The notes under the pieces: model-generated
The model's input: the letters and a program-made list of their open reading frames with translations, nothing else
Database searches by the model: none
What the model was told of the DNA's origin: nothing
Source: a virus
Lineage: Duplodnaviria; Caudoviricetes
IMG/VR virus record: IMGVR_UViG_3300015606_001334
Span: 32,001-96,000 of that record
Direction: 5' to 3' (one strand)
DNA: 64,000 nt
Translations under genes and position numbers: made by a program
In this document: piece by piece, positions 35,973-43,196 of the stretch
How positions within the stretch are numbered: the first letter of the stretch is position 1
Layout of the letters: each line of letters begins with the position of its first letter

Positions 35973-36126
35973 TTTCAAGAGCCTCAAAGAGCTCATCGGC
36001 AGTAAGAGCATTGGACCATTCACCGCTCTGATCTTGCTGAGCAAGTTCTTCCTTGAGGCCAGAAGCGTCAATACCAGCAACAAGCGTTTGCTCTTGCAGG
36101 AACTGATTGAGTGTAGTGTTAGCCAT
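35956..36126 (-). CDS. small acidic putative antitoxin (56 aa, not in ORF track)
   Basis: SD AAAGGAG; MANTTLNQFLQEQ...LTADELFEALESDSTV; overlaps toxin start; early promoter at 36157-36186. Confidence 0.6.
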   Translation of the reverse strand: MANTTLNQFLQEQTLVAGIDASGLKEELAQQDQSGEWSNALTADELFEALESDSTV

Positions 36127-36189
36127 GATGGACTCCTTTAGTTTACCGATAAGACGATTGTATAACAGAAATCGAATTAAGTAAACTAT

Positions 36190-36378
36190 TTATTCAGAGT
36201 CTGGATCAAATGCCTTCTGAAGATCCCTCTTTTCTTGGTTTCTTCGATGCCTGTTGCGATCTTTCTTGATCGCTCGTTTAGCCTCTCTCACGAGAAACTT
36301 AACATTAGATGGGATCGGCCCATCAAGTTCGTCTAGCTTTTCTTGGAAGTAGACATCATCCTTATTCTTCGGTTTCAT
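36190..36378 (-). CDS. hypothetical protein
   Basis: ORF track. Confidence 0.55.
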   Translation of the reverse strand: MKPKNKDDVYFQEKLDELDGPIPSNVKFLVREAKRAIKKDRNRHRRNQEKRDLQKAFDPDSE

Positions 36379-36503
36379 TTCCTTGACAATCGTTCTTCAT
36401 TTCTTGCCGAGCAGTCTTGCGATTGGCTCGGTCGACGGTTTTACGAGCGTTCCGCTTGGGATGAGACTTACCTGCGCAGCACCCAAAGCGGCATTCCAAT
36501 TTG

Positions 36504-36746
36504 TCACGACGACTGTGACCGTATGCTTTCATAATCTTCTCCCTTTCTTACTATTCGTGCGATAATCCGCGGATCGACCATGGTACATTTTGCTTCAATT
36601 TCGGCTACTCGACGTTTAGGAATGTCGTAGTGGTCATTGTGGAACCAACAACGCTTTATCCCGAGCTGCTGCGCCATTTCATGCAAGTTCTCTATCGAGT
36701 AGGGAACGCAAATCAGGTGGCGCATACCGTCAGTGAGAAACTCCAT
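36504..36746 (-). CDS. DUF4031-like protein
   Basis: LHEMAQQLGIKRCWF..DHYDI. Confidence 0.7.
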   Translation of the reverse strand: MEFLTDGMRHLICVPYSIENLHEMAQQLGIKRCWFHNDHYDIPKRRVAEIEAKCTMVDPRIIARIVRKGEDYESIRSQSS

Positions 36747-37108
36747 TAGTGGAGAACTCGACCTGCAGGAGCAGCGGTTTCTTCTTCACCAGTAAGAGCA
36801 GCAATGACTCCGCCTAAGGCGTTGGAAAGTTCTTGACGCTCCGCGACGAGGCGCTTTTCAACATCTTCCTTTGCGACGATGTCAACACGCTCCATATTAT
36901 GCGGTTCGCTAGTGAACTTCAAACCTTGAAAATCGGTTTCCTTGATGTCGAAGAACACCAAAGCAATCAGAGTATCGCCAAACTTTTCCTTCAGGAATTC
37001 GATACCCTTTTCACCGCGTGCAGGAACTTCAACAACATCAGCTTGGGTAAAGGGACCAACCAGAAGGGCGACTTCAGCGTAGGTACGGGTCTTCATCATG
37101 ATATGCAT
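36746..37108 (-). CDS. hypothetical protein
   Basis: SD AAGGAG; early promoter at 37131-37159. Confidence 0.7.
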   Translation of the reverse strand: MHIMMKTRTYAEVALLVGPFTQADVVEVPARGEKGIEFLKEKFGDTLIALVFFDIKETDFQGLKFTSEPHNMERVDIVAKEDVEKRLVAERQELSNALGGVIAALTGEEETAAPAGRVLH

Positions 37109-37176
37109 CTCCTTCGTTTGCTTGAAGAGAATTATATCATGATGACCAAAAAAGTAAACAACTTCGAAGTTACTTT

Positions 37177-37401
37177 TTAAACACCCTGTTCAACTTTCGC
37201 AGATTGGATAGCTTGCATGTGTTTGCGAATCCAACGCATGAACAACATTGCTTTGTCAGAGGAACAGAACTCTGCTTCACCAGTATCTGAGATTGGGACC
37301 GGGAAATCAAATCCACAGTCGGTAATATACCAAAGTTCACCATTCTTGTAATAGTTGAAGTGAACCATGCGGCCAGGTTTGACCATATCCTTAATGCTCA
37401 T
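37177..37401 (-). CDS. conserved small phage protein
   Basis: ELWY...FPVPISDTG...DKAMLFMRWIRK. Confidence 0.7.
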   Translation of the reverse strand: MSIKDMVKPGRMVHFNYYKNGELWYITDCGFDFPVPISDTGEAEFCSSDKAMLFMRWIRKHMQAIQSAKVEQGV

Positions 37402-37467
37402 TTTGAGACTCCTTAAGTTGGGCTTAGCTCTATCGAAATCAATCCACAGAGTAAGCGGTTAGAAAAA

Positions 37468-37542
37468 TGGAGACCGTAGAGGGAATCGAACCCTCGTTAT
37501 CGGATTTGCAATCCGGTGCACTAACCACTCTGCCATACGGTC
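37468..37542 (-). tRNA. tRNA-Cys(GCA)
   Basis: Cloverleaf, TTGCAAA loop, U73-CCA. Confidence 0.95.
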
Positions 37543-37585
37543 TGGCGTTCTTATTTAGAATCAACCAAATAGGAACAAAATTTAT

Positions 37586-37692
37586 TGGATAGCTTTATGA
37601 AGCTAATACGGTGCTTGAATCCGCGGTAACCCTACTCTTCCTGGGCCTTCATGACATCTGCCGGCTAGCATGTCACTCTTATCGGTTATCCA
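37586..37692 (-). ncRNA. candidate Y-RNA-like structured RNA
   Basis: Closing stem TGGATA/TATCCA; internal TGACAT/ATGTCA and TGAAG/CTTCA helices; T-loop-like GCGG-ATTCAAGCA-CCGT. Confidence 0.4.
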
Positions 37693-37710
37693 GTGTAGTT
37701 ACTATTAGCT

Positions 37711-37784
37711 TGGCAAGGGTGGAAGGTAATGCTCCTTCTTCCTCTGGTTCAAAGCCAGATACTTTACTTTTAAGCTACACCCCA
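37711..37784 (-). tRNA. tRNA-Gln(TTG), atypical D- and T-loops
   Basis: Anticodon loop CTTTGAA; D-loop lacks GG; T-loop AGCATTA; CCA. Confidence 0.8.
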
Positions 37785-37793
37785 ATTGTTCGC

Positions 37794-37920
37794 GGAGTTT
37801 TTGCAATCCTCATAGTTCGATAAGCTCAGAGGAAGACTGTAAATTCGTAAACCCAAACTCCCTAAGGCTTGTCGATCAATCATTCCGGCTTATCGTCCAG
37901 AACAAAGGACCTATACGAAT
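37794..37920 (-). ncRNA. candidate structured ncRNA with kissing loops
   Basis: Multiple complementary segments (see findings). Confidence 0.45.
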
Positions 37921-37974
37921 ATTCGACGGAATTATTTTTCGGTTCAATGCGCATTGACCGAGTTTGGTTCCGCC

Positions 37975-38051
37975 TGGTCTCGCTGGTAGGATTCGAACCT
38001 ACGAAATCCTGTTCCCAAAACAGGTGGTATAGACCACTAACCGACAGCGAG
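37975..38051 (-). tRNA. tRNA-Pro(TGG)
   Basis: Cloverleaf, TTTGGGA loop, CCA. Confidence 0.92.
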
Positions 38052-38086
38052 ATATTTTGCCATCTTTCGACAGCAAATTGTAAAAC

Positions 38087-38383
38087 TTAGCCTTCGAGAC
38101 CTAGCTCGTCGACATAAACTTCATCATTTTCTTTGTGGAAGATCTGATGAGTGTTGCGCTGATCATTGAGAATTGTTTCTCCTCTTCCACTCATTTCGAT
38201 CGAAATCACTTCACCAGTAAATTCGATGATTTCAGCAAATTGAGAAGCGTTTTCAACGTACTCGTATGCTTGCTTTGGATCATTGAAAACACGGTAAGTT
38301 GGACCATCGCCATCGTTGTTGATGCCAAGATAACGCTTACCAGCTGATTCGCTGATCTTGATCATTTCTTGTAGAAATTTCAT
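38087..38383 (-). CDS. hypothetical late protein
   Basis: True start MKFLQEMIKISES after TATAAATA; the ORF-track extension runs through tRNA-Arg. Confidence 0.7.
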   Translation of the reverse strand: MKFLQEMIKISESAGKRYLGINNDGDGPTYRVFNDPKQAYEYVENASQFAEIIEFTGEVISIEMSGRGETILNDQRNTHQIFHKENDEVYVDELGLEG

Positions 38384-38415
38384 TTTGGAACCTTTCAGAA
38401 AAAGGTATTTATATT

Positions 38416-38493
38416 TGGCGCCCTCGGAGAGATTCGAACTCCCGACTTCTTGTTTCGAAGACAAGCACTCTAGTCCAACTGAGTTACGAAGGC
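38416..38493 (-). tRNA. tRNA-Arg(TCG)
   Basis: Cloverleaf, CTTCGAA loop, CCA. Confidence 0.92.
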
Positions 38494-39014
38494 ATGTTTA
38501 ATATTTCATCAGTCATATGTCGCGAGATAAATCTTTTGACTTGAGTATGACTAATTCCTAATTCTTTACTACATCGAGTAACCCAACCCCAGCCAGTAGC
38601 AGAGTGCCTTCTTACTGCATCCTTATAGGAGTTTAGTTTCTCTTTTGAATATTGTCTACCAGCAGATGGTTTGCCCTTTCTTCTAGAAGCTATCATCTCC
38701 TTTGCCTTCTCTTCACCGTATTTCATTTTCATACGGTCGTTGAATGACAAGTACGTTCCAGCTTCTTTTTGATCGAGGTGATTATCTGTTGGAGTTCCCC
38801 AATACAAATGATTGGGGTTACTGCACTTTTCATTATTGCATGCATGACACAAATAAATTTTTGATCCTCTAGGGATTGTTGTATCTAAGAAATCAGCTAG
38901 TAATCCCCTGAATTCTTTTGAGTAACCTCCTCGTTCGATACAATTTTCTTCTAGACTGAGATGGGAACGTCTTTCTTCTCTACTTAGATTGATGTACTCA
39001 TTTATGTCTTGCAT
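38484..39014 (-). CDS. HNH-type homing endonuclease
   Basis: LCHACNNEKCSNPNHLYWGTPTDN plus C-terminal HTH-like segment; free-standing inside tRNA array. Confidence 0.8.
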   Translation of the reverse strand: MQDINEYINLSREERRSHLSLEENCIERGGYSKEFRGLLADFLDTTIPRGSKIYLCHACNNEKCSNPNHLYWGTPTDNHLDQKEAGTYLSFNDRMKMKYGEEKAKEMIASRRKGKPSAGRQYSKEKLNSYKDAVRRHSATGWGWVTRCSKELGISHTQVKRFISRHMTDEILNMPS

Positions 39015-39061
39015 TTTGAACCTTTAACTAAGAATGTATTTCCTATTTATAGGTTCAGATT

Positions 39062-39139
39062 TGGCACCGCTAGGGGGACTTGAACCCCACCCCTCGAGAG
39101 TGACAGTCTCGCATGCTCAACCATTAACACTATAGCGGT
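39062..39139 (-). tRNA. tRNA-Asp(GTC)
   Basis: Cloverleaf, CTGTCAC loop, G73-CCA. Confidence 0.92.
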
Positions 39140-39229
39140 GTAGAGGAACGTTTTAGGCCTTTCAAACGTTCAGAGAATATTTAGCCGGACCTGACTTGCA
39201 GGTAAACCTTCCCTTGACTGATTTCAGGC

Positions 39230-39550
39230 TCAGTGAACCTTAATTTTCGGCAAGGCCGCAATAAGCGCCTTTTTCAAATTCTTGTATTTCGGCTTATCAG
39301 ACATGAGTTGAATCACTTCGTCAAGATCAACACCGTGTTCTGATAGATGTTTTCTGAAATTGCTACGACGATTGTACTCACTAGCCTGTTTTACACAAGC
39401 ATAGCATTGAGTGCGGTTCTTAAGACGAACTGCGCCACAAGTAATGCATAGATCCTGTGCTTTCCGGAAAGCACGAAGTTTACGATTGCTTACTGCTTGC
39501 GGAGTATCGGAGTTTTTGCCTTCTGAACGAAGATCTTGAGTTTCAGCCAT
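39230..39550 (-). CDS. zinc-ribbon hypothetical protein
   Basis: CxxC...CxxC; early promoter at 39579-39608. Confidence 0.65.
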   Translation of the reverse strand: MAETQDLRSEGKNSDTPQAVSNRKLRAFRKAQDLCITCGAVRLKNRTQCYACVKQASEYNRRSNFRKHLSEHGVDLDEVIQLMSDKPKYKNLKKALIAALPKIKVH

Positions 39551-39613
39551 TTTGTTCTTCTCGCTTTGAAAAAGTTAAATTATAACTTCAAAACGAGAAG
39601 ATGTAAACTGTTT

Positions 39614-40015
39614 TTATATCTTGAAATACTGGAATTCTACATAAGACTCAATTTCAGGAGGTTCCTTCAACATGATTTGAGTCTCAGTGATTTCAACATA
39701 AGCTTGTCTTGGTAGTTTTCGTCCATTGACAAAAACGAGGACTGAGTCAGTATGCATCACGTATGGAACATCAAGAGTAAACATCTGTTTGTCTTTGACA
39801 TCAATGTAAAATTCTTGACAGATCATTTTCCAAGCTGGCAGATCACCTAATGCTTTGTTCCAAATACCGTTTGCTTGAATGTAAAGTCCCTTCTTAACAG
39901 GATCCTTGCAATAAATGATTTGACCTTCTTCGAAGATGCCGTACTCAGGAACTTCATCATAGACTGGAATCTTAACCAGGTTTCTGATGACCTCTTCATT
40001 CGCATAAACTCTCAT
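39614..40015 (-). CDS. hypothetical late/structural protein
   Basis: VLVFVNGRKL motif; ATAAATA upstream. Confidence 0.65.
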   Translation of the reverse strand: MRVYANEEVIRNLVKIPVYDEVPEYGIFEEGQIIYCKDPVKKGLYIQANGIWNKALGDLPAWKMICQEFYIDVKDKQMFTLDVPYVMHTDSVLVFVNGRKLPRQAYVEITETQIMLKEPPEIESYVEFQYFKI

Positions 40016-40055
40016 TTGTTTCTTCCTTATAGTTATGGATGAGATATTTATTGAT

Positions 40056-40129
40056 TGGCAGAGCGTGAGGGAATCGAACCCCCATCTGCGGACTTGGAAA
40101 CCGTTATGTTACCACTACACCAACGCTCT
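40056..40129 (-). tRNA. tRNA-Trp(CCA) with destabilised anticodon stem
   Basis: AGAGCGT TG GTGT AGTGGTA ACAT A ACGGT TTCCAAG TCCGC AGAT GGGGG TTCGATT CCCTC ACGCTCT G CCA. Confidence 0.88.
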
Positions 40130-40135
40130 ATATTT

Positions 40136-40210
40136 TGGTACTCCATACGGGATTTGAACCCGTCCGCCTACCTTGAAAGGGTAGTGACCTAACCGCTAGT
40201 CTAATGGAGT
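40136..40210 (-). tRNA. tRNA-Glu(TTC)
   Basis: Cloverleaf, CTTTCAA loop, CCA. Confidence 0.92.
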
Positions 40211-40213
40211 ATA

Positions 40214-40285
40214 TGGCCCGCGGAAGAGGAGTCGAACCTCCAAGGCCAAGATTCGTAGTCTTAGCTCCATCCATTTGGCCCGCGG
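40214..40285 (-). tRNA. tRNA-Arg(ACG), reduced D-arm
   Basis: CTACGAA loop, canonical T-arm, CCA; short D region without U8. Confidence 0.75.
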
Positions 40286-40293
40286 ATTTTTGT

Positions 40294-40371
40294 TGGGGCG
40301 ATCGACGGGACTTGAACCCGCAAGTACCTGATTCACAGTCAGGTGTGTCTACCAATTCCACCACGATCGCC
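40294..40371 (-). tRNA. tRNA-His(GTG)
   Basis: G-1:C73 pair, CTGTGAA loop, CCA. Confidence 0.95.
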
Positions 40372-40388
40372 ATAGTGAAAAATAAATC

Positions 40389-40475
40389 TGGCTAGGGAGG
40401 AAGGAGTCGAACCTTCACAAAGGCTTGCGCCGACAGAGTCAAAGTCTGTTGCTCTACCAGTTAAGCTACTCCCCA
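40389..40475 (-). tRNA. tRNA-Gln(TTG) with long variable arm
   Basis: CTTTGAC loop; variable hairpin GGC-GCAA-GCC; CCA. Confidence 0.88.
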
Positions 40476-40481
40476 ATTATT

Positions 40482-40585
40482 TGGCGGCGGATCAATTAAC
40501 CCAAACCTAGTCTAACCAACCGGCCGATTGGACTCGTCTATTGTGAGGGAAATTAGAAGAAGCTAGCATTCTAACTTAACCCGCC
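40482..40585 (-). ncRNA. CCA-terminated non-tRNA stable RNA candidate
   Basis: GGCGGGTTAA / TTGATCCGCC terminal stem + GCCA; starts directly after tRNA-Phe CCA. Confidence 0.55.
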
Positions 40586-40660
40586 TGGTGCCAGCGATTG
40601 GTAACGATCCAACCTCTCAAGATTTTCAGTCTCGCGCTAATCCATCTCAGCTACACTGGC
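40586..40660 (-). tRNA. tRNA-Phe(GAA), T-loop ATCGTTA
   Basis: CTGAAAA loop, CCA. Confidence 0.88.
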
Positions 40661-40669
40661 ATTAAAATT

Positions 40670-40745
40670 TGGTGCACCCAGTCGGAATCGAACCGACGCT
40701 ACCATGCTCTTCAGGCATGTGCTCTACCAACTGAGCTACAGGTGC
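40670..40745 (-). tRNA. tRNA-Phe(GAA), G37
   Basis: CTGAAGA loop, canonical arms, CCA. Confidence 0.92.
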
Positions 40746-40750
40746 ATATT

Positions 40751-40826
40751 TGGCACTGCGTACGGGTTTCGATCCCGTTGCCTCTACCGTGACAGGGTAG
40801 CGCTCTCCCAATTGAGCTAACGCAGT
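40751..40826 (-). tRNA. tRNA-Asp(GTC)
   Basis: CTGTCAC loop, T-loop ATCGAAA, G73-CCA. Confidence 0.92.
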
Positions 40827-40833
40827 ATTGATT

Positions 40834-40917
40834 TGGTACAGCGTGGGGGAATCGAACCCCAGCCCGAAGGCGGTACCTTGAAAGGGTACTGACCGTTACC
40901 AGCAGTCGACACGCTGT
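40834..40917 (-). tRNA. tRNA with TTC (Glu) anticodon, 8/4 fold and variable hairpin
   Basis: ACAGCGTG/CACGCTGT 8-bp acceptor, 4-bp T-stem, GCC-TTCG-GGC V-arm. Confidence 0.8.
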
Positions 40918-40934
40918 ATTAAAGATTGCTTAGG

Positions 40935-41009
40935 TCGGAGTGAGAGGATTTGAACCTCCGTCCTCCTCCTTCCAAGGGAGGCCGTCTACCAGGCTGACAT
41001 TACACTCCG
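40935..41009 (-). tRNA. tRNA-Pro(TGG), no encoded CCA, A37
   Basis: CTTGGAA loop; ends CCG-A-CCT; flanked by 12-bp inverted repeat. Confidence 0.88.
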
Positions 41010-41030
41010 CCTAAGCAATCTCTTTACTTC

Positions 41031-41438
41031 TTAAACTTCTTTGATTCTTCGAGCTAAGCTTCGATAACCATATCCAGCAGGGTGGATCTTGTCCTGGCTT
41101 AATTCTTGAACCTTTATCTCAATAGTCTTATCACCGTTTTTACTGGCGAGTTCCTCAACTATCTTTCTCTGTACAGGCTTGATACTCTTGCTTGGTAAAA
41201 TCCAAACAACCTGACCTGTAATGGAGCTTCTCAGCTTTTCTAGTGCTTCAAGAGTTTTGATCTGTTTGGTATCGTTTGTCCCAAGGCTGATAATCGTCAT
41301 TGGCAACTTCATGTTGAAGTCATGACGTTTAACGAAATCCTCAGAATTTATACCAGACTTTGCGTTTGCTTTGCATTCATGCATTACATTCGAAAGACCA
41401 TAAGCAATTGAGTCACCAATAATTAAACATTCAAGCAT
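41031..41438 (-). CDS. SGNH/GDSL hydrolase
   Basis: IIGDSIA, SG, LGTND, DKIHP blocks. Confidence 0.8.
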   Translation of the reverse strand: MLECLIIGDSIAYGLSNVMHECKANAKSGINSEDFVKRHDFNMKLPMTIISLGTNDTKQIKTLEALEKLRSSITGQVVWILPSKSIKPVQRKIVEELASKNGDKTIEIKVQELSQDKIHPAGYGYRSLARRIKEV

Positions 41439-41461
41439 ATTTTCCTTTTCAGTTTAAGTAA

Positions 41462-41536
41462 TGGTGGTGATGGCGGGAGTCGAACCCACTTGGTACTCCT
41501 TATGAGGGAGGCGCATAACCGTTCTGCCACATCACC
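41462..41536 (-). tRNA. tRNA(CAT): elongator Met or Ile2
   Basis: CTCATAA loop, G1-C72, CCA. Confidence 0.88.
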
Positions 41537-41551
41537 AAAAGCTATCCAATT

Positions 41552-41563
41552 TGTTAAAGAGCG
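41552..41563 (-). promoter_or_regulatory. boxA antitermination element
   Basis: CGCTCTTTAACA vs rrn boxA TGCTCTTTAACA, 15 nt before first tRNA. Confidence 0.75.
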
Positions 41564-41586
41564 TACTACTAAAAATCTGTGTTACT

Positions 41587-41624
41587 AAAACAATTAAGGG
41601 AAACCAATTTCTTGATTTCCCTTA
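41587..41624 (-). terminator. attenuator terminator hairpin
   Basis: UAAGGGAAAUCAA-GAAA-UUGGUUUCCCUUA followed by AUUGUUUU. Confidence 0.8.
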
Positions 41625-41684
41625 GTATTTTTACTTCTTAGAGATTTGTTACTTAAGCGTAACCATCTCCTTCAATACTAAGGG
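41619..41684 (-). promoter_or_regulatory. antiterminator hairpin overlapping terminator 5' arm
   Basis: CCCUUAGUAUU (41684-41674) pairs with AAUACUAAGGG (41629-41619); inner GAGAU/AUCUC and GUUAC/GUAAC helices with leader stop in the loop. Confidence 0.75.
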
Positions 41685-41796
41685 CCTTACAAGGTTCATC
41701 ATCATGCATAAACTCTGGGCGGCGATCGCACTGCTCAGTGCGCTGCCACTGGCAGAAATCCTGATCAAATTGTTGTGCGAAAGTTGCGAAGTTCAT
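41653..41796 (-). CDS. tRNA-array leader (attenuator) peptide, 47 aa
   Basis: MNFATFAQQFDQDFCQWQRTEQCDRRPEFMHDDEPCKALSIEGDGYA*; AAGGA SD 12 nt upstream. Confidence 0.8.
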   Translation of the reverse strand: MNFATFAQQFDQDFCQWQRTEQCDRRPEFMHDDEPCKALSIEGDGYA

Positions 41797-41896
41797 GATG
41801 TTGCTAAGTCCTTGTAAAAAGTTAATGTTGCATATTACTATATATTAGATTCGGCAGAATTTTTGTTTTTCTGCTGTTATCCAACCGTTAGATGAA

Positions 41897-42523
41897 TTAT
41901 ATCATTTCTACCGGATTTGTAAACAGTTTTGTTGAAAAAAGTTGAAGCATCAGAGAGTTGAACCTGATCCAAAACACCGACTCCACTGGGTAGGCCGTAT
42001 GTTTGAAGTACCGTACTGCTTCAACATGTAGAGAATTATAAATCGTTTTTCTGAAGTTGTAAACTGTTTTCAATAATTTTTTAATGATGTTGTTGATACC
42101 ACCAAATGAAATCATCGATTTGCGCCCTGAAGATTTCCAAACATCCACCCAACCTGGAGGATATGGAAGCACAAATTCTCCTGCAGTGTATGCAGTCGTC
42201 ATCATTTCTAGAACTATGCTGGCTGCGTCAATTTTGGCAACGCTATGTTTGGTGTACAAATCCGACAGTTTATGTTCAAGTTTGAATTCTTTGCGCAACA
42301 GATTGGCAATAATTGTAGCACCAGCCCTGGCAAACATGTCATCGTCTGTCATTCCAAGATGGTAACCACGATGGGATGCCCAAGCCCTTCTAACTGAGCG
42401 AGTTCGCTCTAACAAACTCTGTGTTTCATCAGTCTTTTTATTGATGCGCTTTAAGGCTTTGTATTCTTTCGTGTTCTTGAACGCTGTCGAGATCAGAAGT
42501 TCTTGTGTGGTCAAAGTGCTCAT
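41897..42523 (-). CDS. hypothetical protein
   Basis: ORF track, start reassigned to MSTLTT. Confidence 0.6.
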   Translation of the reverse strand: MSTLTTQELLISTAFKNTKEYKALKRINKKTDETQSLLERTRSVRRAWASHRGYHLGMTDDDMFARAGATIIANLLRKEFKLEHKLSDLYTKHSVAKIDAASIVLEMMTTAYTAGEFVLPYPPGWVDVWKSSGRKSMISFGGINNIIKKLLKTVYNFRKTIYNSLHVEAVRYFKHTAYPVESVFWIRFNSLMLQLFSTKLFTNPVEMI

Positions 42524-42638
42524 TACGCATATCCACCGTGGTTGACTTTGTGCGCAATTTCGGCTTTGCAATATTCGATTGCCGATTGAGCATCACCTTC
42601 AGCGCCCTTCTTGCAAAGGTCCCAATAGTTGCGCATTT

Positions 42639-43196
42639 TTACACCTTCTTGTAGAGACGTGTAATTGCGAGATGGAAACCTTCGCGGACGTATTCGATGT
42701 CGGTGTTCAGGTCTTCAGCCGTCTGAGGTACCCGAATAATTTCGAAACCGTACGTTTGTTGGATGAGATTACCAGGGATTTGAGCCAGAACTTCAGCAAC
42801 TGACGGCTTGAAGAAACCGTAATAGCCATAGCCATGGTAAGTACGAATGTCGCAAAGTGTTTCGAGCTGAGGAAGCTCTTCTTCCTTGAACTTCGGATCC
42901 CACGTGTAAGCAGTGCTGACCAAATCAGCGATATCGACGATCTTTCCTTTGATGATCGGCTTGATGCGAGAAGCGCGAAGCTCGATTTCTTCGAGTGGCA
43001 TGAGCGGAATCAGCTCAACAAAGTCTGCAACGGTGCAGAGCTCGTCAGAAAAAGCCCACTCTTTCCACAACACATCGTTCTTGATAGACCACGCAGTACC
43101 AAAATCGGTTTTCTTGAAGCGCTCTCCACCTTCGTAGAAGTGAGCGCCAATTTCGAGTTCAGAAAACGGTTTCTTGATTTGGGTAGGGTAGGCCAT
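42639..43196 (-). CDS. hypothetical protein
   Basis: 'TYHGYGYYGFFKPSVAEVLAQIP' motif; early promoter at 43224-43252. Confidence 0.7.
   Translation of the reverse strand: MAYPTQIKKPFSELEIGAHFYEGGERFKKTDFGTAWSIKNDVLWKEWAFSDELCTVADFVELIPLMPLEEIELRASRIKPIIKGKIVDIADLVSTAYTWDPKFKEEELPQLETLCDIRTYHGYGYYGFFKPSVAEVLAQIPGNLIQQTYGFEIIRVPQTAEDLNTDIEYVREGFHLAITRLYKKV

Follow-up and report, generated by a model that had tools for sequence, protein, structure and literature searches.

We analyzed a 64,000-nucleotide stretch of phage DNA (the window), which corresponds to bases 32001-96000 of a 359,550-bp IMG/VR jumbo-phage record, and on its minus strand a short open reading frame (ORF) and an intrinsic terminator lie directly upstream of an array of tRNA genes. 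By its major capsid protein, the nearest cultured relative of this phage is Ralstonia phage RsoM2USA (66.5% identity), and Xanthomonas phages XacN1 and Xoo-sp13 and Stenotrophomonas phages are other near cultured relatives. The genome has a G+C content of 43%, and we found 45 tRNA genes in it with ARAGORN at default settings and 52 Infernal matches. Fourteen of the default ARAGORN calls fall within 41536-37468 of the window (array 1). Two further tRNAs are missed by the default settings: tRNA-Gln(UUG) at 37784-37711 (minus strand), which has an atypical T arm and T loop and is matched by Rfam over 37784-37714, and tRNA-Arg(ACG) at 40287-40215 (minus strand), which has a reduced D arm and requires relaxed ARAGORN settings. 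With these two, array 1 comprises the 16 tRNAs of ten specificities that an earlier note on this DNA had claimed. The specificities are Met (CAU), Pro, Glu, Asp, Phe, Gln, His, Arg, Trp and Cys, with two copies each for Asp, Glu, Phe, Pro, Gln and Arg; the CAU tRNA is counted as Met, Met and Ile2 both being possible. The elements of the locus are, in the direction of transcription (window coordinates):

41896..41923, minus strand: sigma-70-like promoter (TTTACA, 16 nt, TATAAT) with 11 of 12 matches, kept in several relatives
41838..41863, minus strand: conserved promoter-like block that ends in an A/T-rich TATA-type octamer; putative promoter function
41797..41837, minus strand: 5' untranslated leader, with AAGGA at 41813-41809, 12 nt before the AUG
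41653..41796, minus strand: leader ORF (leader 1), 47 codons including the start, UAA stop at 41655-41653
41689..41775, minus strand: putative sensing tract, codons 8-36, in which 28 of 29 codons specify array 1 amino acids
41674..41684, minus strand: predicted antiterminator 5' strand (CCCUUAGUAUU), codons 38-41
41630..41673, minus strand: apical two-tier hairpin of the antiterminator, stop codon in the loop
41619..41629, minus strand: antiterminator 3' strand (AAUACUAAGGG), whose last 6 nt double as the base of the terminator 5' arm
41595..41624, minus strand: intrinsic terminator hairpin, 13 bp, GAAA loop
41585..41594, minus strand: U-rich tail of the terminator, a cleaner T run in relatives
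41551..41563, minus strand: boxA-like element between the terminator and tRNA(CAU), partly conserved in relatives
37468..41536, minus strand: putatively regulated tRNA array of 16 genes, the first being tRNA(CAU) at 41536-41462, with small ORFs and internal promoters between the genes

The promoter-like block at 41838..41863 takes the form TATATATAG or TATAAATAG in relatives. It has only three sites in the genome, being shared by leader 2 (described below) and the promoter region of one tRNA-Ala, and its TATA-type octamer was rejected as a genome-wide promoter motif. Farther upstream, a sigma-70-like promoter (42063-42035) precedes a candidate small RNA at 42030-41928 (minus strand), which is cloverleaf-like, with an 8-bp acceptor-like stem, a T-arm-like hairpin and a T-run end. 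Neither ARAGORN nor Rfam calls a tRNA in this candidate, and T-arm-like sequences are present at its place in some relatives. Elsewhere in the window, at 51078-49522 (minus strand), there is a gene for a TctA-family tricarboxylate transporter subunit (Pfam E 5.9e-92), which is unusual for a phage.

The ORF of leader 1 and its peptide are exactly as the earlier note gave them (47 codons, 41796-41653, minus strand), and its count also holds: 28 of the 29 residues from 8 to 36 belong to the array 1 set, and all ten amino acids occur. When we scored every 29-residue window in six frames of the whole 359,550-bp genome for residues of this set, the tract was the sole top window with a score of 28, and the next score was 24. 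The ten residues make up 36% of residues in the long ORFs of the genome, and the tract lies directly upstream of the array that defines its set. Nearly all relatives have Pro in place of the odd residue, Thr20 (ACT), and one has His, which brings their score to 29 of 29. The Arg CGC codons of the leader match tRNA-Arg(ACG), the gene with the reduced D arm. The leader 1 peptide has no Pfam family. An Rfam cmscan of 36000-43000 at E values up to 1 returned only tRNAs and chance matches, with no match to the His, Trp, Thr, Leu and Phe leaders or to the T-box. INPHARED blastn and tblastn searches with the leader region and neighboring genes gave nothing close, and scans of IMG/VR with neighboring proteins, the back-translated tract and the invariant 31-mer described below gave no matches.

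The ORF is conserved, a point that the earlier note had put forward for checking: we collected about 65 metagenomic variants of the leader 1 peptide, in six clusters, from ENA, Logan, JGI and NCBI assemblies, and their indels preserve the frame. For leader 1 we analyzed 17 loci from relatives, 14 of which have enough downstream sequence, and in 14/14 of these tRNA(CAU) follows the leader after 100-132 nt. At default thresholds, the order and copy number of tRNAs vary among the relatives' arrays while their specificities stay inside these ten, and the sole addition is Arg(UCU) at the far end of two arrays. Core residues 15-36 are nearly invariant; every one of the ten amino acids is present there and no other. 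Within the core, indel lengths are always divisible by three, whereas after codon 42 any length occurs. In the ungapped columns of codons 16-36, all five variable sites outside codon 20 are synonymous third-position changes, and the protein variants of the core carry a few replacements, for example Arg to His. The in-frame indels and synonymous changes argue that leader 1 is translated. At the end of the core, a 31-nt stretch has zero nucleotide changes in relatives, which points to constraint at the RNA level too. The C-terminal tail varies freely in sequence and length. RF-1/PCRF-domain fragments, a PTH2 peptidyl-tRNA hydrolase and a lysidine-synthase-like ATP_bind_3 protein are encoded near relatives' arrays (locus L008, 15982-16668 and 18414-18815; locus L027, 1-595); these genes are a wider translation toolkit.

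Downstream of the core, the RNA can adopt two structures. The earlier note had described an 11-bp helix between 41684-41674 and 41629-41619 with the UAA in its apical loop, and a terminator at 41624-41595 with a U-rich tail that the 3' strand of this helix overlaps; we found both. Another pairing that it proposed, between the Shine-Dalgarno region (41817-41810) and 41694-41687, a candidate for the upstream pause or anti-antiterminator (1:2) hairpin of an attenuator, is present in the minimum-energy fold and is not kept in relatives L003 and L011. The compensatory changes that the note had suggested looking for are seen in the apical stems, which in 11 variants are unrelated in sequence and still self-complementary. 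The same three-tier hairpin folds in 11/11 of these distinct variants with the stop codon always in its apical part, and at the top of the closing helix there is a compensatory exchange of U-A to C-G. Elsewhere the closing helix, like the terminator, hardly varies in the clade, so formal covariation is thin there, and this lack of variation neither supports nor contradicts the pairing.

To model the ribosome, we used a 28-nt mask and cut the RNA just before the 3' arm of the terminator. In folds of this cut RNA, the probability of the antiterminator is about 1 without a ribosome or with a ribosome at codons 1-34, and it is 0 with a ribosome at codons 35-44. In the full RNA at equilibrium, the probability of the terminator is about 0.98 wherever the ribosome is placed. 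Because the equilibrium ribosome-mask model always predicts the terminator, we set it aside as a test of the mechanism. The terminator being favored at equilibrium in every case, any control must be kinetic; in the trp attenuator, the terminator is likewise more stable than the alternative structure and control is kinetic. A ribosome at the stop codon sits inside the hairpin, a steric clash to which the folding program is blind.

A second module is found in the same genome, outside the window. Array 2 (genome 149.2-128.2 kb, minus strand) contains tRNAs for Gly, Ile, Ala, Lys, Leu, Val, Asn, Thr, Tyr and Ser, and also Arg(UCU), Pro and Cys. The ten specificities of array 1 and these ten thus divide the twenty amino acids ten and ten. 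The leader 2 ORF lies 370 nt upstream of the first tRNA of array 2:

genome 149680-149570 (781-671 of locus L020), minus strand: leader 2 ORF, 36 codons
L020 637-610: leader 2 terminator

Residues 2-29 of leader 2 are a 28-residue run drawn from the ten amino acids of array 2 alone, with all ten present. In six frames of the genome, this run is the third longest for its set, and no longer run contains all ten. Codons 2-32 sample 18 of the 20 anticodon species of array 2, including AGA for Arg(UCU), a count that only 10 of 213,560 stop-free 31-codon windows in six frames reach. The two species that have no codon in leader 2 are Pro and Cys, both of which duplicate array 1. The ATA and TTA codons of leader 2 may be served by CAU and Leu(UAA) tRNAs, which score low in this genome (within 136.5-148.1 kb, minus strand) and are present in relatives at default thresholds. 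The same interval (136.5-148.1 kb, minus strand) contains several long Infernal tRNA matches of 115-127 nt, and ARAGORN calls there require insertions of 40-80 nt in the anticodon arm. At genome 119950-120023 (minus strand) there is a tRNA of amber-suppressor type, with anticodon CUA (Infernal, 74.8 bits), and RsoM2USA, XacN1 and RAS14 also have such a tRNA.

Leader 2 shares with leader 1 the upstream block, a similar 5' UTR and start context, and the same style of terminator and tail, a resemblance indicating that its module is a paralogue of that of leader 1. Here the antiterminator has the stop codon within its own 5' strand. Relatives in which identity of the flanking protein is down to 68-78% show hardly any change in leader 2 or its switch, and the replacements that occur keep within the set, except for one Val to Met. 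Within the coding region, there is a hairpin (L020 737-719, minus strand) with a 7-bp stem and an AAUAA loop, in which relatives L022 and L027 carry a compensatory change of G-C to A-U; this hairpin is possibly a polymerase pause signal. A scan of JGI metagenomes with the leader 2 anchor protein gave no match, an exact-sequence search for leader 2 did not find it, and in the representative library the only match was an unrelated repeat protein.

In RsoM2USA, the tRNA genes are partitioned differently from those of the jumbo phage studied here. Cluster 1 of RsoM2USA serves Pro, Cys, Glu, Tyr, Leu, Trp, Ser, His and Val, and cluster 2 serves Met, Ile, Asn, Gln, Lys, Arg, Phe, Ala, Val, Pro, Asp and Thr. 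We found an ORF of the same kind upstream of each:

MG752970.1 112124-112047, minus strand: leader A, 216 nt upstream of cluster 1
MG752970.1 87361-87248, minus strand: leader B, 69 nt upstream of cluster 2

In leader A, 21 of 21 consecutive residues come from the nine-residue set of cluster 1 and all nine are present; its codons use 13 of the 15 anticodon species of the cluster, including three Leu and three Ser isoacceptors. In leader B, 30 of 30 consecutive residues after the start codon come from the twelve-residue set of cluster 2. Over the 72 kb examined, the runs in leaders A and B are by a wide margin the longest for their own sets (21 versus 15 and 33 versus 22). Leader B shares motifs of the 5' UTR, helix and terminator with leader 1 and has a completely different peptide, which argues that the scaffold is conserved while the coding content follows the array. 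Both RsoM2USA leaders have the same switch geometry as leaders 1 and 2. Neither is annotated in the RsoM2USA GenBank record, where a spurious-looking CDS on the opposite strand (RsoM2USA_176) overlaps tRNA genes and part of the leader A ORF. In the RsoM2USA genome paper, ORF calling was restricted to those above 50 aa, and attenuation is not mentioned. We saw no leader with an ATG start in front of the third tRNA cluster of RsoM2USA, and BLAST searches with the scaffold against Xoo-sp13 and RAS14 gave chance matches only.

Taken together, the four leaders have a common RNA scaffold and no peptide similarity, and each is the top or a near-top composition outlier for the set of its own array, directly upstream of that array. 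The co-variation of leader codons with array tRNAs that the earlier note had asked about in related phages is thus found in the leader 2 module and in the two RsoM2USA modules. Each of the four leaders has its stop codon in the apex of the antiterminator, or in or next to its 5' strand, at a point 41-51 nt before the 3' arm of the terminator, so that a terminating ribosome can reach the antiterminator and not the terminator. The features of a leader-peptide attenuator are present: a short ORF under coding constraint with a start signal (with the caveat that the AAGGA is 12 nt from the AUG), codons that match the putatively regulated genes in four leaders, an intrinsic terminator that separates the leader ORF from those genes, an antiterminator that is mutually exclusive with the terminator (the overlap in leader 1 being only 6 nt), and a stop codon placed to act on the antiterminator, as judged from the masking model, the four leaders and the 11 variants.

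We propose that the element is a ribosome-mediated leader-peptide transcription attenuator that controls the phage tRNA array, with the leader ORF serving as a roster of its tRNAs; from the sequence evidence, we give this reading a probability of roughly 0.8. How the element is built, how far it is conserved and how its codons co-vary with the tRNAs of the array can be read directly from the genomes, and the comparative evidence strongly supports the attenuator interpretation; we infer that the ORF is translated, which way control runs and that the coupling is kinetic. In the proposed mechanism, a ribosome would translate the leader while RNA polymerase transcribes it. If any rostered tRNA were scarce, the ribosome would stall inside codons 8 to about 34, leaving 41684-41674 free to pair with 41629-41619 and hold back the base of the terminator 5' arm. 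With the antiterminator intact, the polymerase would read through into tRNA(CAU) and the array. When decoding is fast, the ribosome would cover 41684-41674, reach the stop codon in the apex of the hairpin and melt the antiterminator, the 13-bp terminator would form, and transcription would end at about 41590. The net effect would be negative feedback on tRNA supply, tripped by a shortage of any one species, and transcription of the array probably rises when any rostered tRNA runs short. The same design would be reused in this genome for the other ten amino acids, and in RsoM2USA with a different partition.

Some observations count against the attenuator reading, among them the equilibrium preference for the terminator and the thin covariation noted above. 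In three of the four leaders, AAGGA and AUG are 12 nt apart, a long spacing for a Shine-Dalgarno sequence, and the antiterminator of leader 1 holds only 6 of the 13 nt of the terminator 5' arm. Trp, His and Met are sampled by one codon each. The Cys tRNA was not detected in one lineage, relatives L003 and L017, though their leaders keep Cys codons. Quick scans of XacN1 and RAS14 revealed no roster leaders, and XacN1 instead has consensus sigma-70 promoters throughout its tRNA region. Finally, there are internal sigma-70-like promoters inside or after the modules, so each switch would govern a limited part of its array.

We weighed three other explanations. An unlikely one is that the ORFs are translated sensors of the rostered tRNAs whose output or polarity differs from the one proposed: fast translation could lead to read-through, the element could act on the stability or processing of the leader-tRNA precursor, or the terminated leader RNA could act in trans. 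This would be in keeping with equilibrium folds that do not separate ribosome positions, with pairing between the 5' UTR and the end of the ORF in the full-length folds of leader 1 and leader 2, and with the boxA-like element that follows leader 1 (by eye, we saw none after leader 2 or the RsoM2USA leaders). It is harder to reconcile with terminators that are canonical and with the placement of the stop codon, which in all four leaders is in or next to the 5' strand of the antiterminator at a distance of 41-51 nt from the terminator 3' arm. We consider it very improbable that the frames are untranslated and that their composition is a by-product of RNA-structure constraint in a conserved 5' leader and terminator. 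Such an RNA-only element fails to explain why each of four unrelated sequences encodes the amino acids served by its own array (and, for leader 2, the isoacceptors), and it fails to explain in-frame core indels and core changes that are synonymous outside codon 20, although it would accommodate the 31 nt of the leader 1 core that are invariant at the nucleotide level, the near invariance of leader 2, the compensatory change in its internal hairpin, the long AAGGA-AUG spacing, and the finding that both full leaders (1 and 2) fold far better than shuffled sequences (z about –5). That these are ordinary small phage protein genes followed by ordinary terminators, matching their tRNA arrays by chance, is hardly credible, since despite the amino-acid-level conservation of the leader 1 core (with three Cys and one His) and the frequency of small ORFs among phage tRNA genes, leader 1 has no Pfam family, C-terminal tails vary freely, the four leaders share an RNA scaffold without peptide similarity, and each is a top or near-top composition outlier directly upstream of its own array.

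The proposed attenuator resembles known systems in its parts. The ilvGMEDA and thr attenuators (and those of trp, his, leu and pheA) likewise have a translated leader, a terminator, an overlapping antiterminator and a stop codon that blocks the antiterminator, and two of them, ilv and thr, sense more than one amino acid. In the known enterobacterial leaders, the repeated codons stand for one to three amino acids, and the genes under control encode biosynthetic enzymes. In contrast, the phage leaders sample 10 to 18 tRNA species, each about once to three times, the genes they would regulate are the tRNAs themselves, and the element is in a phage. In the pheST attenuator of E. coli, leader-peptide attenuation likewise acts on part of the translation machinery; Phe codons alone are sensed there and the target is a synthetase, whereas the phage element has many codons and tRNA genes as its putative targets. 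None of the ilv, thr and pheST leaders is known to control tRNA genes or to sample more than three amino acids. T-box riboswitches also read the state of a specific tRNA by transcription attenuation, but there a single uncharged tRNA is bound directly and no ribosome is needed, whereas the phage element would read many tRNAs through decoding. The boxA-like sequence after the leader 1 terminator recalls the boxA-Nus antitermination of rrn and tRNA operons, although that signal is separate and confers processivity unconditionally. In logic, the closest systems appear to be the pheST leader and the multivalent leaders of ilv and thr. A full-text literature search found no description of such attenuation of tRNA genes, which is no proof that none exists.

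It is likely that jumbo phages possess a family of modular roster leaders, each enumerating nearly every tRNA species of its array and co-evolving with it, which together with the RNA switch would give feedback on tRNA supply in the manner of an any-of-N alarm. A loop whose output is tRNA would be homeostatic, and it would suit a phage of 43% G+C if the composition of its host is very different, as is the case for RsoM2USA (41% G+C and a host of 67%, according to the RsoM2USA genome paper). The counter-defence OR gate that the earlier note envisaged is possible as one use, or special case, of feedback on tRNA supply, and is not separately supported.

If the attenuator reading is true, these would be the first known leader-peptide attenuators to act on tRNA genes, and no earlier one would read as many as 10-18 tRNA species simultaneously. 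Classical attenuation repeats one codon many times; here the principle would be extended to many codons used once each. The system is testable at once because RsoM2USA, with two such leaders, is cultured, and biosensors of tRNA availability could naturally be modeled on a roster leader. Discussions of phage tRNA genes usually treat them as passive aids to codon usage or as spares against tRNA-cleaving defences. A built-in sensor would mean that the phage measures decoding capacity and adjusts its tRNA output, and roster leaders would explain why tRNA genes are sorted into modules.
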